This document shows, one piece after another, positions 19,003 to 24,850 of a stretch of DNA of 24,850 nt. The DNA comes from a virus (lineage: Duplodnaviria > Heunggongvirae > Uroviricota > Caudoviricetes), in IMG/VR virus record IMGVR_UViG_2565956726_000010, one strand, 5' to 3'. The position numbers and the translations under genes were made by a program. Below the pieces are notes generated by a model that was not told the DNA's origin, did not search any database, and worked only from the letters and a program-made list of their open reading frames with translations. Position 1 is the first letter of the stretch; the number at the start of each line of letters is the position of its first letter.

Positions 19003-20760
19003 TCACAGAATTAACAGGTCCTCATCAGGATCAAGCGTGGACAGAAAGTCATTCACGCCCCCTCCATTTACCAGAAAGCGGCTCATGGCTGTAAAAAGCG
19101 CAACAGGGCCGTCGATTTTGGCTTCCGGCGTGGATTTATTCGGGAAGATGTTGTCGTTTTTGTCCGGTTTTACAGTAACGTTAGACATCATCCAGTTCAT
19201 GACCGGATGATTGCTGTGATGGAAACGCCCGGCATAAACCAGTGATTCCGTTTCCTTCATGGCCTCTGACAGATTGCGGACCGTCTGCGGAACCTCCACC
19301 AGCGGTATCCCTTCTTCAGCCAGTGCCAGGCTGAACTGCATTGCGCTCCACGGGTCAAATCCCAGTTCCCTGAGGTTTTCACCGCCAATCCATTCCAGTA
19401 AGTCACTTTTTATCTGAGCATGATCGATAACATCACCATCCGTCAGGATGAGCTTATCCATCTCCGCCCACTTCCGGTAAAGTTCTGCCTGCTGCCGCGA
19501 GCATCGTTCCAGCCGTCCTTCCGGAAGCCAGAATTTAAAATCAGCATGAACATGTCCGTTATCGGTTCGCCAGAGTTTTGCCGCCGCACAGATATCAATC
19601 TTATGAGCAAGGTCGACGCCGACCCACATGGGATATGTTTTCAGCTCATGTTGTGGAGCAATGTATTCGCACTTCTCCCACTTAATCATATCCATCCAGG
19701 CAGATTCGGCAGTGACCCACACATTCATGTGTTTGGTAAAAAAATTCACCCGCGCAGAGACCTGCTCCTTCGCTTTTTTCGCCAGACGACGCAGATCATC
19801 CCAGCGTTTACAGATGCCCAGGCCAGGATTCGCTTTCTGCCAGACCGTTTCATCAAACGGATCATCTCCCTCATCAAGCGTGTAAATGATCGCAAAGTAA
19901 GAGTCGTCTTTTACAGCGCCCTCCACGTCGCTGTTATAGCCTCGCAATACCTTGATGGCGTAATCACGCTGCTCGTAACAAATCCCTTCCTTGTTAAAGC
20001 CAGCCGTGGTGATACCAAATAACAGGGACTGCAGACGGGCACCGGTTGCCGTTTCCAGAACGTCCCACACGTCGCGGGTTTTATGTGCATGCAGCTCATC
20101 AATAATGGCGCAGTGGATGTTCAGACCGTCCAGGTTGTTTGCATCCGAGGAAAGCGGTTCAAATTTTGATGCGCTCTGCTCCTGGTAAATCGCCAGCTTG
20201 TTGAAATCAAACAACCGCCCGAGTGTCGACCGGGCTTTTCTGACCATATTTTTGGCGTCTTCAAACACGATTCTGGCCTGGTCACGCGTGGTTGCGGCTG
20301 AATACACCTCAGCTCCGCCTTCACTATCTGCCCCCGTCATATACAGGCCGATACCCGATGACAGTGTTGATTTTGCGTTTTTACGGGCGACTTCGTTGTA
20401 CGCCGTCCGGAACCGGCGCACCATCACCGGACGTCCGCTGCCATCGCTGCGCATGACAACTTCCCCGGTTTCTTCATTGACCAGCGGAATGACAAAACCA
20501 AAAATATTAATGAGGATAAATACATGCCAGTCCATCAACTCAATGGGCTGGCCTGCCAGTGCCCCTTTTACATGAGGCACAAATTTGTAGAAATTCAGGA
20601 TGTGCTGCGCACGGGGTTCACTGAAATAAATCCCCCGCTTTTCGCCGTACTTCAGATCATCAAGAAAACGCTGGCAGGCCAGGCGGACAAATTCGCCAGC
20701 AACAATTTCTCCTGCAACAACACGTTCGGCGTAGCGGATCCCGTCAGCCACTTTTGCCAT
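19003..20760 (-). CDS. terminase large subunit
   Basis: 585 aa; Walker A-like region near the N-terminus and acidic nuclease-type motifs; ATG 20760..20758 overlaps the small terminase stop (TGATG). Confidence 0.9.
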   Translation of the reverse strand: MAKVADGIRYAERVVAGEIVAGEFVRLACQRFLDDLKYGEKRGIYFSEPRAQHILNFYKFVPHVKGALAGQPIELMDWHVFILINIFGFVIPLVNEETGEVVMRSDGSGRPVMVRRFRTAYNEVARKNAKSTLSSGIGLYMTGADSEGGAEVYSAATTRDQARIVFEDAKNMVRKARSTLGRLFDFNKLAIYQEQSASKFEPLSSDANNLDGLNIHCAIIDELHAHKTRDVWDVLETATGARLQSLLFGITTAGFNKEGICYEQRDYAIKVLRGYNSDVEGAVKDDSYFAIIYTLDEGDDPFDETVWQKANPGLGICKRWDDLRRLAKKAKEQVSARVNFFTKHMNVWVTAESAWMDMIKWEKCEYIAPQHELKTYPMWVGVDLAHKIDICAAAKLWRTDNGHVHADFKFWLPEGRLERCSRQQAELYRKWAEMDKLILTDGDVIDHAQIKSDLLEWIGGENLRELGFDPWSAMQFSLALAEEGIPLVEVPQTVRNLSEAMKETESLVYAGRFHHSNHPVMNWMMSNVTVKPDKNDNIFPNKSTPEAKIDGPVALFTAMSRFLVNGGGVNDFLSTLDPDEDLLIL

Positions 20761-21242
20761 CAGTCTCTCGCTTTTAAAAGCTCTGCCAGCGGATCAACAT
20801 TATCCGGTCCGGCGGTATTTACTTTTGCCCGGCTTGCCGGTGACATACCAAATTCTGCAAGCATCGCCCGGATCCGCTTCCAGGCATCCGCTTTCATCGC
20901 AGCAGCCGGGTGTGCCTTAATCAGCACATCACCGTTCTGCGTTTCCGAGCGGTAGGTGTACCCCTCAACATCGAGTGTTTCGCAGTGATGCCGGTATTCG
21001 GTATAGGCTTCCACCAGTAGCTCAAGCGCACGCGCATCAAGCTGAGAAATGATCCCTTCCGCATTCAGCTCTTCCGCCATTCGCCTGAACCAGTACTTCC
21101 CCTGCGCCCCTAAATGTTGCGGAATTTTAGGGAGACCTTTTTCATCCTTTTTAGCGGTTTTTTTGAGGTCTTTAACTGGCCGCTTTGAGGGGTTGCCTCG
21201 TATCAAATGCAGGCGTGGCGGGATTTTCGGGGGTCCAGACAT
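20760..21242 (-). CDS. terminase small subunit (P27-like family)
   Basis: 160 aa basic N-terminus (PKIPPRLHLIRGNPSKRPVKDLKK) directly upstream of and coupled to the large terminase gene. Confidence 0.8.
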   Translation of the reverse strand: MSGPPKIPPRLHLIRGNPSKRPVKDLKKTAKKDEKGLPKIPQHLGAQGKYWFRRMAEELNAEGIISQLDARALELLVEAYTEYRHHCETLDVEGYTYRSETQNGDVLIKAHPAAAMKADAWKRIRAMLAEFGMSPASRAKVNTAGPDNVDPLAELLKARD

Positions 21243-21389: not shown

Positions 21390-21740
21390 TCAATTGATGC
21401 GTTCGCGCGCTGTTTTTGCTTTATGACAGGGCCAGCACAGACTCTGCAGGTTACTGTCTGCATCTGTGCCACCATGAGCTTTCGGAATGATGTGGTCCAC
21501 AGTTCTGGCTTCAACGGCTCTCCCATTGCGCAGGCAGTTCTGACACAGATGATTATCACGCTTCAGTATGCGCGCACGTATGGCATCCCATTTCGAGCCA
21601 TAGCCACGCTGGTGGCGGCTCAGTCCGCGTTGATGCTGTACCCATCCTTCGCCACGATGTTTATCGCAGTAACCAGAACTGTCTGTGGTTGTACCTGCAC
21701 ATCCACGCTTACGGCAGGCGCGTGGGATTAGTGCTGGCAT
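21390..21740 (-). CDS. HNH endonuclease (terminase-associated)
   Basis: 116 aa with Cys pairs and the HNH core (CQNCLRNGR...VDHIIPKAHGGTDADSNLQSLCWPCHKAK); positioned just upstream of cos/terS as in HK97 gp74. Confidence 0.85.
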   Translation of the reverse strand: MPALIPRACRKRGCAGTTTDSSGYCDKHRGEGWVQHQRGLSRHQRGYGSKWDAIRARILKRDNHLCQNCLRNGRAVEARTVDHIIPKAHGGTDADSNLQSLCWPCHKAKTARERIN

Positions 21741-21878: not shown

Positions 21879-22418
21879 ATGGATATTAAAGATAAAATCA
21901 ATACCATTTTGTTATGTGACATTGCCATCCACCTAGGTATCGAAACTGATATTGATCCACAGCTTGTTAAATATGCTGTGTCATCTGGTAATGATTGGGT
22001 TATCAAGGCCGAATATTCACATTTGGATGTTGACGAACCAAGTAAAGAAGATCGTGATTTTGTTACTGCTGTCTTGAATATGTATCGCGGACTTTCCAAT
22101 GCTTTCAGGAAACTTAGTGATGACGAGCAAAAAGAATTAGTCCGTGACCATCATCTAAAAATACATGATGGGGCAATTCAGCTCCCAGGTTTCGACGGTA
22201 ATAATGAATGCGATTACTTCAGTATCATTGAGGCATATCAGAAAATTGATCGCTTCCCCGAACAGAAACAGCCCATTGCCAATACTCATTCACGTACAGA
22301 ACATCTCTATAACGCAATGCTTGATGAGTTTAAGAAAATTGACGCTGTAAATCGAAGCTGGGATTTATCGAAGGAAGAACTGGCATCCATTCTTTCCACA
22401 GCTCCACGCAGTTTCTAA
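21879..22418 (+). CDS. YfbU-family (UPF0304)-like protein, 179 aa; moron on the opposite strand to the phage late operon
   Basis: ATG 21879 with AGAGG Shine-Dalgarno ~8 nt upstream; AT-rich coding sequence; by-eye alignment to my recollection of E. coli YfbU across four blocks ([24 protein letters not shown] ~ [34 protein letters not shown] ~ [29 protein letters not shown] ~ [29 protein letters not shown] ~ LSANEINQII); followed by a hairpin terminator. Confidence 0.6.
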   Translation: [179 protein letters not shown]

Positions 22419-22423
22419 GTGCT

Positions 22424-22690
22424 TTAGGCGGGTTTCCAACCCGCCTTATTATGCTCGTATATAGAGAAGGAAGCACCCAAATTAACCAGCGCGGATTTCT
22501 TTTCCTCAATACGGCTGTTAAGTTCAGCAACTGCATGCGGGCGTATGGCCTCAAGAAAAGCACTATATTGATAGGCAGACTGGATTGTCACACCAAGCCC
22601 TGCACCACTTTCCAGTATACCTTTCTGTCGCTGTAGCTCTTTCATCTCGTTATAGATGTAATGTGCGTTACTTAGGTTTTCTACGTTCAC
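22424..22690 (-). CDS. hypothetical 88-aa protein (GTG start) convergent with the YfbU-like gene
   Basis: Protein-like helical composition; AGGAAG about 10 nt upstream of GTG 22690..22688; alternative ATG at 22645 gives 73 aa; its last codons overlap the terminator hairpin, which lowers confidence. Confidence 0.35.
   Translation of the reverse strand: MNVENLSNAHYIYNEMKELQRQKGILESGAGLGVTIQSAYQYSAFLEAIRPHAVAELNSRIEEKKSALVNLGASFSIYEHNKAGWKPA
22426..22447 (+). terminator. intrinsic terminator after the YfbU-like gene (possibly bidirectional)
   Basis: AGGCGGGTT-TCCA-AACCCGCCT followed by TATTATG, 8 nt after the plus-strand stop codon; it overlaps the 3' end of the convergent 88-aa ORF. Confidence 0.5.
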
Positions 22691-22845
22691 GCCCTAAGTT
22701 CTTCCTGCAGTTAGCCTGCACTGATTTGTTATGCGCCAATATGTCCCGCTTCGTCTGTTGCATTATCATAAGTAATAGCGTAGGTTGACACCTTGGCTCT
22801 CTTTCGCCACCGGCGAATCTTTAGCGGATTATCCTTGGCCGGTTT

Positions 22846-23313
22846 TTATCTGAGACATTGCTCACGAATGTATAGCTGTGCCCCTTCCAGTTGCTTCTGC
22901 ATCGTCATCAACCGTTCTCTGAGGGTGAAATAATCCCGTTCAGCGGTGTCTGCCAGTCTGGGGCTGGTTGCATTATCCACGCTGGTGGGTCCGGTGGCTT
23001 CACGCACGGCTGCGGAGCAACTGGCATTGACCCGCAGGCGCTTACGACCAGCGGCAACATCAGCGCGCAGAGTTTCATTTTCAGCTTTCGCATTGGCTAA
23101 TTCTCTCGAGTACTTTGCATCGAGCGCAGCAACATCACGCTGACGCTGTTGCATGTCAGCGATGGTGGCAGTCGCCTGCTTCAGCTCACTGACTTTTTTA
23201 TCACGCTGTTCTTTGTAGGCGATGGCGTTATCACGGTAATGATTGACCGCCCACGACAGGCAGACGATGGTGCAGATAACCAGAGTATAAATAATCGCTG
23301 CGACTCTGCTCAC
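22846..23313 (-). CDS. Rz: i-spanin Rz
   Basis: Aligns to lambda Rz ([33 protein letters not shown] vs lambda [33 protein letters not shown]); start taken as GTG 23313..23311 overlapping the endolysin stop; the ORF track's upstream extension begins at a TTG. Confidence 0.85.
22908..23093 (-). CDS. Rz1: o-spanin Rz1 (lipoprotein embedded in Rz in the +1 frame)
   Basis: 61 aa [22 protein letters not shown]... with lipobox Cys and a proline-rich segment, C-terminus ...[15 protein letters not shown] as in lambda Rz1; entirely inside Rz. Confidence 0.85.
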
Positions 23314-23843
23314 TGATCTATCCCCCAACAGGCTAATGCGCTTTCCTGGTCACGACGAATAACCTGTCCATAGCAGTTATTTGAACGTATGCGGCAATCG
23401 CGCCCACCATCTTTTATCCACCAGCGAATCGCCTCGCATGCGCCCTTACGATCACCGGCATTCAGCCGCTTATAAAACGTCGACGGGAAACACTTACCGG
23501 GGCCAATGTTATAGGGACAGAATGACGCTATACCCGCTTTCTGTGGTTCGGTCAGTGGTACTTTAATATTGCGCTCTACCCATGCCAGCGCCTTATCACG
23601 TTCAATAGCGTTAACCTGGTCGCATTTTTCCTTCGACAGCTTCATTCCCGGTATGACGGGCTTACCATCCACCATTGTGGCACCCCGACAGATGGTCCAG
23701 ATGCCGGCCCCATCGCGGTATGCCGTTGTGTGGTTACCTTCTTTTTCATCCAGAAACTGGTCGAGAATATCAGGCGCGGGCGCACCGACGGCAATCAGTG
23801 CCAGAACGGCAGCCGACAGGCCGTATCTGATTTTTGCGTTCAT
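23310..23843 (-). CDS. R: endolysin, T4-lysozyme-like glycosidase with N-terminal SAR (signal-arrest-release) segment
   Basis: 177 aa; weakly hydrophobic Gly/Ala-rich N-terminus ([18 protein letters not shown]) followed by a catalytic region with E...D...T spacing ([20 protein letters not shown]), as in phage 21 / P1 SAR lysozymes. Confidence 0.85.
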
Positions 23844-24257: not shown

Positions 24258-24284
24258 TGAATTACTCTCCCCGTGCAGCCTTAC

Positions 24285-24850
24285 TGGATTTGCCCCTATA
24301 TTTCCAGACACCTGTTATCACTTAACCCATTACTGGCTTGCTGCCGTAGATATTCCCGTGGCGAGCGATAACCCAGTGCACTATGCGGATGCCATTCGTT
24401 ATAATGCTCGAACGCCTCTGCAAGGTTCTTTGCTGCCGTTAACCCGTCTGGTTTGGGCATGACACTGATGTAGTCACGCTTTATCGTTTTCACGAAGCTC
24501 TCTGCTATGCCGTTACTCTCCGGACTCCGCACCGCCGTGCTCTTCGGTTCAAGCCCCAACATCCGGGCAAACTGCCGTGTTTCATTAGCCCGGTAGCATG
24601 AACCATTATCCGTCAGCCACTCTACTGGAGACGCCGGAAGCTCGTTGCCGAAGCGGCGTTCCACCGCTCCCAGCATGACGTCCTGTACTGTTTCACTGTT
24701 GAAGCCGCCCGTAGTGACCGCCCAGTGCAGTGCCTCACGGTCACAGCAGTCCAGCGCGAACGTGACTCGCAGTTTTTCTCCGTTATCACAGCGGAACTCG
24801 AACCCGTCAGAGCACCATCGCTGATTACTTTCTTTCACAGCCACTCTGCC
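24285..24850 (-). mobile_element. IS2 insertion sequence, right-end portion (element continues beyond the window)
   Basis: Terminal sequence tggatttgcccctatatttccagaca at 24285..24310 matches the IS2 right inverted repeat as I recall it; the adjacent ORF translates to the C-terminal part of IS2 transposase InsD. Confidence 0.9.
24296..24850 (-). CDS. insD: IS2 transposase InsD (orfB, DDE integrase core), 5'-truncated by the window edge
   Basis: Translation ...[66 protein letters not shown]...[36 protein letters not shown] is near-identical to my recollection of IS2 InsD; the first codon in the window is GTG (Val), not a true start. Confidence 0.9.

Follow-up and report, generated by a model that had tools for sequence, protein, structure and literature searches.

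Morons of the lambda bor type are cargo genes with transcription of their own, found between the Rz gene and the packaging genes and oriented antisense to the late operon. The E. coli yfbU gene has been termed a "death gene" under DNA damage (PMC2646832). Kamadhenu, a YfbU-domain protein of 180 aa, was reported as a single-gene abortive-infection system in lactococcal plasmids, and its top HMMER matches include Klebsiella pneumoniae, according to the authors (PMC11381338).

Herein, we analyzed an E. coli prophage of the lambdoid/HK97-like type, whose late genes are on the minus strand. The window, that is, the whole stretch of DNA analyzed, comprises 24,850 nt (IMG/VR virus record IMGVR_UViG_2565956726_000010). 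An initial annotation of this DNA had drawn attention to a minus-strand open reading frame (ORF) converging on a YfbU-like gene, and had interpreted it either as a second cargo gene, possibly under antisense control resembling that of type I or III toxin-antitoxin systems, or as a non-coding region with a small RNA or promoter. We conclude with high confidence that the locus would instead hold a genuine late-strand small gene directly after the lysis cassette, bordering a variable slot, and that its overlap with a hairpin would be an accident of stop codon loss.

Gene order at the locus

The 88-codon ORF (22424-22690, minus strand) has a GTG start and a TAA stop at 22424-22426, and encodes the protein WP_001100260.1 of PHROG 5415. 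The last intact lysis gene upstream of it is the Rz i-spanin gene (22846-23313, minus strand), in which Rz1 (22908-23093) is embedded, and the lysozyme gene (23310-23843, minus strand) is also a late gene. On the other side, the YfbU-like gene (21879-22418, plus strand; stop codon 22416-22418) encodes a protein of 179 aa (Pfam YfbU, 46.3 bits; PHROG 6084) and sits, on the opposite strand, between the ORF and the HNH endonuclease gene (21390-21740, minus strand). The latter is the first gene of the packaging module (HNH, terS, terL) and forms the far edge of the variable slot; the small (20760-21242) and large (19003-20760) terminase genes are likewise on the minus strand. The 1.3-kb region around the ORF was found at an identity of at least 99% in 171 complete E. 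coli genome records, and the same region was present in two induced phages.

Conservation of the 88-codon reading frame

The ORF listing returned the minus-strand ORF exactly as first described, with 88 aa and a GTG start. It had been regarded as unannotated, which is wrong: the protein is a hypothetical protein in RefSeq (WP_001100260.1), and the gene is annotated in the GenBank record of phage vB_EcoS-611R1. Since spurious ORFs of 60-125 aa were numerous in the same region, the length of the ORF alone was not significant, and its coding status rests on conservation. We took 52 distinct coding sequences from 93 loci, 48 of which yielded distinct 228-nt cores, for the analysis of conservation and dN/dS that had been proposed as a check. 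The frame was kept, and there were no indels in any of the 48 homologous sequences. The variable sites at codon positions 1, 2, and 3 numbered 33, 30, and 66, respectively. The median pairwise dN/dS was 0.17 and the pooled pN/pS in the ORF frame was 0.23, while four control frames (two shifted sense and two antisense) gave pN/pS values of 1.06-2.43. The remaining, phase-matched antisense frame had a pN/pS of 0.25, which we attribute to the coincidence of its third positions with those of the sense frame; no ORF of at least 30 aa was open there in the window. When the window allele was compared with the family consensus, dN/dS was 0.21, like that of other members.

Profile searches placed the protein in a defined family. 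Residues 1-76 matched profile positions 1-76 of the 76 in PHROG 5415 (E=2e-38, 131 bits), and 276 close homologues, nearly all of 76 aa, were found in Citrobacter, Salmonella, Klebsiella, and E. coli, so that the 76-codon frame is kept across genera. The conserved 76-codon core of the window allele (22463-22690, minus strand) has the canonical family length, a dN/dS of about 0.2, and a predicted structure with a pLDDT of 94.7. A profile search of 1.84 billion representatives revealed a wider family of 95 clusters at 50% identity, mostly of 74-82 aa and reaching down to 27% identity. The motif of the 95 representatives, GLGVTIxGxYQDD..F...RPxV..EL..RI......L..LGV, was represented in the window, where GLGVTIQ(S/G)xYQ and RPxV..EL..RI appear as GLGVTIQSAYQ ... 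RPHAVAELNSRI. Family members are typically ~74-80 aa long and end a few residues past the LGV motif; the window allele, at 88 aa, departs from this length with its 76-aa core intact. In a profile search of a 5.8-billion-protein database, close relatives alone were among the matches listed, and a scan of genome contigs gave 6 loci. One viral scan with P0133 gave no matches. Searches of Pfam, NCBIfam, PADLOC, and PDB sequences with the ORF protein found no match, a Pfam scan of 33 diverse family members gave scattered single matches at E>0.02 and nothing else, and a literature search on the PHROG identifier found nothing. Purifying selection, the conserved frame, and the PHROG family match bear out the suggestion of a real protein-coding gene and mark the ORF of 88 codons as a true small gene of phage origin, one already annotated.

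Upstream junction and condition of the E. coli copy

In almost all of ~50 distinct upstream contexts, the start of the small gene overlapped the stop of the last spanin gene. The overlap was 23 nt when this was of the o-spanin (lipoprotein) type, and 1 or 4 nt (TAATG or ATGA) when it was Rz-like. Most relatives also had a GAAGGAG ribosome-binding site 7 nt upstream of the start. From this overlap and the ribosome-binding site, we infer that the small gene would form the translated tail end of the late lysis transcript, which is antiterminated by Q.

In the window, the ribosome-binding site was GAAGAAC instead of the GAAGGAG of most relatives, the start codon was GTG, and the upstream coupling partner was a relic. 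It stems from an o-spanin (lipoprotein) gene, of which part of the 3' end (22668-22758, minus strand) is left within a remnant ORF of 33 codons (22668-22769) that reads MIMQQTKRDILAHNKSVQANCRKNLGRERRKPK, compared with ...DKQTKRDILAHNKSVLANCKKESARERREPK in Klebsiella. Homology to the Rz module of Stx-type phages extended down to ~22792, and homology to the 3' end of the relatives' o-spanin gene began at ~22758 and continued into the small gene. The junction between the two modules (22759-22845, minus strand) is thus where the Rz 3' flank meets the o-spanin relic, at ~22758. As read from these homologies, the 155 bp at 22691-22845 is a scar left by recombination between lysis cassettes of two types, composed of the Rz 3' flank, a short junction, and the o-spanin relic. 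Rfam searches of the 155 bp gave no matches at E≤1, and promoter-like matches numbered 2, against 2.5 expected by chance, one of them at 22791-22762 on the minus strand. The suggestion that this region might be non-coding and hold a small RNA or promoter gained no support.

The window was collinear with an intact relative up to 24284. Beyond this position, an IS3-family transposase gene interrupts the holin gene (~24285), so that the ORF would be cut off from the late promoter region in this strain. A sister E. coli allele (L044, L045, L060, and L062) had a premature stop at codon 41, suggesting that loss of the gene is tolerated in prophages.

A lost stop codon and the overlap with a hairpin

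A hairpin with a 9-bp stem and a 3-nt loop was found by folding at 22426-22446 on the plus strand, 8 nt past the stop codon of the YfbU-like gene. The stem arms (22426-22434 and 22438-22446) form the structure AGGCGGGUU-UCC-AACCCGCCU, in which 7 of the 9 pairs are G-C, with a centroid energy of about -15 kcal/mol and a z-score of about -2.3. As first described, this hairpin sits inside the last codons of the ORF, where the last seven sense codons (K-A-G-W-K-P-A) and the TAA stop cover 22426-22446. It had also been called the terminator of the YfbU-like gene, and here we agree in part. It is a hairpin owned by the cassette and located after its stop codon; however, it is terminator-like only, since the tail past the stem on the plus strand, UAUUAUGC, has 4 U of 8, an imperfect U-tract below the threshold of the consensus scanner. 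On the minus strand, the tail is AAAGCAC, without a U-tract. The equivalent hairpin in another YfbU-carrying locus (L134) is followed by UCUUUUCAUUU, a proper U-tract. Equivalent hairpins were kept in other YfbU-like cassettes, including some without the small gene, and both sides of the stem top had changed. Their presence after the yfbU stop in these cassettes indicates that the hairpin belongs to the YfbU-like cassette.

The overlap could be traced to a single codon. In the Klebsiella loci, the small gene ends with ...TCC TTC TCT TAA, and the hairpin follows ~20 nt on, in a 41-nt spacer before the YfbU-like stop. At the same place, the window reads ...TCC TTC TCT ATA TAC GAG CAT AAT AAG GCG GGT TGG AAA CCC GCC TAA. 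The ancestral stop (22460-22462) is now ATA, not TAA, TAG, or TGA, which gives a C-terminal extension of 12 codons (IYEHNKAGWKPA; 22427-22462, minus strand). With TAA changed to ATA in this allele, translation would run 12 codons on, through the neighbour's hairpin, to the next in-frame TAA. It is this loss of the stop codon that makes the ORF overlap the hairpin. Among all distinct 3' ends, the read-through extension was present in this E. coli allele alone; the other YfbU-carrying loci stop before the hairpin, at codon 76 (L003 and L036-L038) or codon 80 (L075). The 12-residue tail had a pLDDT of ~50 in the AlphaFold model, falling below 50 at residues 79-81 and 84-87. As the overlap occurs in a single allele, the one whose stop was lost, it would have arisen recently and by chance within one lineage, with no regulatory purpose behind it.

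The variable slot and its YfbU-like cassette

Sequence homology between the loci stopped at the stop codon of the small gene. From there to the HNH gene, the distance ranged from 240 bp (an empty slot, L066) to 3474 bp, the contents being many unrelated ORFs on either strand, and some loci ran on into lambda-type Nu1/A terminase genes. The slot before the HNH and terminase genes is either empty (240 bp) or filled with unrelated inserts of up to 3.5 kb, and in the window it is taken by a YfbU-like cassette that runs on the opposite strand and carries a hairpin of its own. A YfbU-like gene was present at the locus in 13 of the 52 distinct small-gene alleles, and there was none nearby in the other 39. 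All YfbU-like genes of at least 89% identity adjoined the small gene convergently. In contrast, for YfbU-like genes at 82%, 75%, and 58% identity (L134, L135, L138, and L139), no homologue of the small gene was found within 2.5 kb. In the two of these loci that were examined, the YfbU-like gene occupied the same slot, following an Acb2-like gene in one (L134) and directly following an Rz-like gene in the other (L138). When the window was compared with a Klebsiella locus (L003), nucleotide identity was 93.7% in the yfbU coding sequence, 82.9% in the small gene, and 71.8% in HNH. The higher identity of the yfbU coding sequence suggests that the cassette moved between backbones more recently than its flanks did.

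These distributions did not agree with the view of the ORF as a second cargo gene, since it is a conserved gene that flanks the slot in dozens of prophages of enterobacteria, whether or not a YfbU-like gene lies beside it. A moron is expected to be absent from collinear relatives, in which its flanks are then adjacent. Among the loci retrieved, this was true of the YfbU-like gene, as seen in the empty slot of L066, and not of the ORF. On its sequence distribution, the YfbU-like gene is independently exchanged cargo, antisense to the late operon. Convergence of a cargo gene and the late operon is ordinary for bor-type morons, and no special explanation is needed for it here.

The YfbU-like protein matched Pfam PF03887 with 46.3 bits against a cutoff of 25, whereas its score against the NCBIfam model of chromosomal YfbU was 34.8 against 90 bits. 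A phmmer search with this protein found no match among PDB sequences. By analogy with Kamadhenu, a stand-alone defence role for the cargo gene is plausible, and as Kamadhenu acts as a single gene, the small ORF would not be needed as a partner.

The predicted protein and the genomic contexts of its homologues

The AlphaFold model of the core, built with a 64-sequence alignment, had a pLDDT of 94.7 and a pTM of 0.80. It consisted of a helix (residues 3-27), a β-hairpin (35-40) formed by the conserved GVTIQ.Y motif, and a second helix (43-70). No transmembrane segment, signal peptide, or lipobox was found, and there was no hydrophobic segment (GRAVY -0.38; highest 19-residue Kyte-Doolittle mean, 0.67). 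The small protein is thus predicted to be soluble and roughly neutral, an 8.4-kDa antiparallel coiled coil of helix, β-hairpin, and helix. Fold searches returned generic coiled-coil hairpins only, and BFVD yielded nothing but phage proteins of ~75 aa that are themselves uncharacterised (TM scores, 0.8-0.87).

Distant homologues at 42%-49% identity also followed lysis cassettes, as in L094, Klebsiella phage ST101-KPC2phi6.3, and L144. In L094, the homologue came directly after an Acb2/Tad1-hairpin gene (Pfam E=2.6e-19), which lies between the spanin genes and the homologue. At the L134 locus, an Acb2-like gene was in the same post-spanin position, and no homologue of the small gene was present there. 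Other contexts were varied. In a high-GC phage (L096), the homologue was located between a Mu Gam-like gene and terS. Homologues in virulent phages lay within runs of small uncharacterised genes, as in the 111-kb Escherichia phage EP_H11, Salmonella phage PCSE1 (between recD2 and the primase gene), a Guernseyvirinae phage (after the helicase-primase gene), and an Ackermannviridae phage. Metagenomic small-gene arrays carried a homologue beside GTP cyclohydrolase I/QueF-like genes. Such mixed contexts point to a portable accessory gene and not to a fixed part of the lysis or packaging machinery, and the Acb2-like genes at or near the post-spanin position suggest that this position behaves as an accessory-gene site. 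Because of the shared genomic position, we compared the family with Acb2/Tad1; a divergent relationship was rejected, with an hhalign probability of 0.15% and E=0.39.

Judged by its neighbourhood, the small protein may, tentatively and with less than even probability, act as an accessory factor in host takeover or counter-defence by binding to a protein of the host or the phage; we consider it less likely to belong to the machinery of lysis or packaging. A more specific version, in which the ~76-aa family would be a counter-defence or host-takeover protein that binds and blocks a host factor, its gene also being the constant border of a hotspot for cargo in the lambdoid prophages of enterobacteria, is speculative and in our view rather improbable. 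If it were true, the hotspot slot, where the Kamadhenu-like YfbU gene is found along with HEPN-like-motif proteins and other cargo, might be a place to look for new defence genes.

Alternative readings of the locus

Several other readings were weighed against a genuine late-strand gene with a lost stop codon. That the ORF is spurious, and the region from the terminator to Rz non-coding with a small RNA or promoter, would fit the GTG start and weak ribosome-binding site in the window and the single promoter-like match at 22791-22762 on the minus strand. However, purifying selection acts in this frame alone, apart from the phase-matched antisense frame (pN/pS 0.25), the 76-codon frame persists across genera within a family reaching down to 27% identity, Rfam is silent at E≤1, the promoter-like matches (2 against 2.5) are at chance level, and the upstream 155 bp are accounted for by the Rz 3' flank, a short junction, and the o-spanin relic; we regard a spurious ORF as extremely improbable. 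It is also conceivable that the family is real and that the copy in this E. coli prophage, itself defective, is decaying towards a pseudogene, with poor expression or no function left. The copy has lost its stop codon, its ribosome-binding site is degraded, its coupling partner is a relic, an IS element interrupts the upstream holin gene in the window, and the sister allele carries a nonsense codon at position 41. Nevertheless, the 76-codon core is intact, with a dN/dS against the consensus (0.21) no higher than that of other members, 171 complete E. coli genome records match the 1.3-kb region with an identity of 99% or more, and the 88-aa allele was intact in 26 of 26 carrier loci, including two induced-phage records. 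Erosion of this copy is therefore an unlikely reading, albeit one to be kept in mind.

The remaining readings assign the gene a partner. In one, the small gene would work together with the YfbU-like gene as a functional pair, be it toxin-antitoxin-like, defence with immunity, or antisense control via convergent transcription and the shared hairpin. All YfbU-like genes of at least 89% identity are convergent beside the small gene, the hairpin would be common to both transcripts, cell death has been associated with E. coli YfbU, and abortive infection is brought about by a protein with the YfbU domain. But co-occurrence in close relatives would follow from common descent of one insertion, and a YfbU-like neighbour is missing from 39 of the 52 distinct alleles of the small gene. 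More divergent YfbU-like genes are found in this slot where the small gene is absent. The nucleotide identity profile is that of a cassette exchanged apart from its flanks, the coding overlap with the hairpin exists in one allele only, Kamadhenu is a single gene, and there was neither a hydrophobic peptide nor an RNA repeat array, Tandem Repeats Finder reporting one chance repeat of 1.9 copies and 13 nt inside yfbU. The functional-pair reading appears largely refuted by this distribution, and we consider it very unlikely. In the other, the protein would be an accessory component or regulator of lysis working with the spanins. A lysis-related role is possible given the constant post-spanin position in temperate phages: the start of close homologues lies within the last spanin gene or at its stop codon, for two unrelated spanin types, and homologues of 42%-49% identity still follow lysis cassettes. 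Yet the protein has no transmembrane segment, signal peptide, or lipobox, homologues occur far from lysis genes in virulent phages and a high-GC phage, and an Acb2-like gene separates the spanin genes from the homologue in one relative and takes the post-spanin position without it at another locus. We thus doubt a lysis function.

On balance, the real coding gene of the initial interpretation stood, and the cargo status, the toxin-antitoxin analogy, the small RNA or promoter, and the unannotated status did not. The ORF is an ordinary, already annotated hypothetical phage gene with a drifted stop codon, and there is nothing unusual at the overlap. This has little bearing on the question originally raised, as no hidden regulatory design, small RNA, or toxin-antitoxin module is present. 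Two leads emerge. One is a widespread, confidently folded, uncharacterised protein family in temperate and virulent phages, sometimes beside known counter-defence genes; the other is the stop codon of the small gene as a sharp mosaic boundary before a variable cargo slot, here holding a YfbU-domain gene. Both the protein family and the cargo slot are starting points for experiments and not discoveries.

Comparison with known systems

The locus resembles type I or III toxin-antitoxin systems in its convergent genes with a hairpin between them. It differs from them in lacking a small hydrophobic toxin, an RNA antitoxin with a repeat array, and an endoribonuclease toxin; in addition, the two genes do not always occur together, and the overlap is found in one allele. 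The proposed toxin-antitoxin-like regulation was accordingly not borne out, there being no transmembrane peptide, no RNA repeats, and no fixed association of the two genes. PADLOC gave no match for either the ORF or the YfbU-like protein, with no toxin-antitoxin or Abi protein model. A type I arrangement was rejected on its own account as well, since the sole possible antisense partner, the 3' end of the yfbU mRNA, is absent from 39 of 52 alleles, and there was no Rfam match.

Compared with Acb2/Tad1-hairpin proteins (PF24729), the ORF family shares the character of small helical late-strand phage proteins, and the Acb2-like genes are post-spanin (L134) or directly upstream of the homologue (L094). 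The two differ in that there was no detectable homology between them and no Acb2 structure among the fold matches listed. Kamadhenu and the YfbU-like neighbour are both of ~180 aa (179 here), carry the same Pfam domain, and stand alone on a mobile element. Unlike Kamadhenu, the neighbour is a putative antiphage protein, and its score of 34.8 bits falls short of the 90 bits that NCBIfam sets for chromosomal YfbU.

Like a bor-type moron of lambda, the YfbU-like cassette runs antisense to the late genes at a site that separates the lysis module from the packaging module, carries a hairpin of its own, and is missing from relatives that are otherwise collinear. The ORF, on the other hand, is on the late strand and is a conserved flank of the insertion site; the likeness is that of its neighbour. 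For the ORF itself, the counterpart is PHROG 5415. The window allele differs from this family in its length (88 aa instead of 76, owing to the lost stop), its weaker ribosome-binding site, and a spanin partner that is a relic, and it agrees with the family in the full-length profile, the motif, the predicted fold, and the genomic position after the spanin genes.

Holin disruption and a lysis-cassette joint in the window prophage

The window was collinear with an intact relative (L001) up to 24284, where collinearity broke within the class II holin gene, leaving a holin remnant at about 24262-24284. The stretch past the break (24285-24850) contained an ORF for an IS3-family transposase with rve and rve_3 domains. 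The holin gene of the window prophage is therefore disrupted, and the late operon is cut off from Q and the late promoter. Downstream of the intact lambda-type Rz/Rz1 spanin pair, the minus strand (22668-22769) still carried a remnant of an o-spanin lipoprotein gene, 33 codons from its C-terminal end. This remnant shows where lysis cassettes of two kinds were joined by recombination, at about 22758-22792.

Small-gene alleles and neighboring genes in related prophages

Four related prophage loci (L044, L045, L060, and L062; small gene from 4001 or 2159 onward) carried another E. coli allele of the small gene that follows the spanin genes. This allele starts with ATG and stops prematurely at codon 41, where CAA has become TAA. 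The YfbU-like genes adjoining this allele were 98-99% identical. In L045, the YfbU-like protein match was confined to residues 87-179 and the HNH endonuclease gene was about 1.2 kb more distant, which suggests an insertion in yfbU.

Genes of the Acb2/Tad1-hairpin family (the anti-CBASS/anti-Thoeris sponge family) were located immediately 3' of the spanin genes in two other related prophages. In L094 (3209-3490, plus strand), such a gene adjoined the small-gene homologue, and in L134 (3120-3377, minus strand), it occupied the post-spanin place of the small gene and was followed by a YfbU-like cassette.

Several relatives shared a conserved ORF, about 77-95 aa long (…MRLTVLDDDPGRKINL…GSVRIEPCQR), whose end overlapped the HNH start codon (L066, 4212-4484; L040, 4809-5096; L053, 5745-5978 (+)). 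The window lacks this ORF, which may be linked to the HNH/terminase module as a further late-strand accessory gene.

Cargo in the variable slot

The slot between the small-gene stop codon and HNH/terminase resembles a hotspot for defence or cargo genes. After the small gene, it held stand-alone hypothetical ORFs in L050 (2351-2914), L092 (4306-4920, minus strand), L061 (4264-4944, minus strand), L076 (4529-5092), and L010 (4573-5022). Judged by eye, several of these ORFs carried HEPN-motif-like R-N-x-x-x-H strings, and two had N-terminal hydrophobic stretches. The sole database support for these readings came from weak PADLOC matches to CARF_HEPN (E = 0.0039) and a 2TM effector (E = 0.0099).

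In the window, the cargo is the YfbU-like gene (21879-22418, plus strand, 179 aa). A weak, sub-threshold Pfam match to the Cfr10I/Bse634I restriction endonuclease was also seen in its protein (E = 0.0015). Between E. coli and Klebsiella prophages, the gene shared 93.7% nucleotide identity, with flanks at 72-83%. It may be a defence gene of enterobacterial prophages. Kamadhenu, a single-gene abortive-infection system of lactococci (PMC11381338), matches the YfbU-like protein of the window in domain and size.
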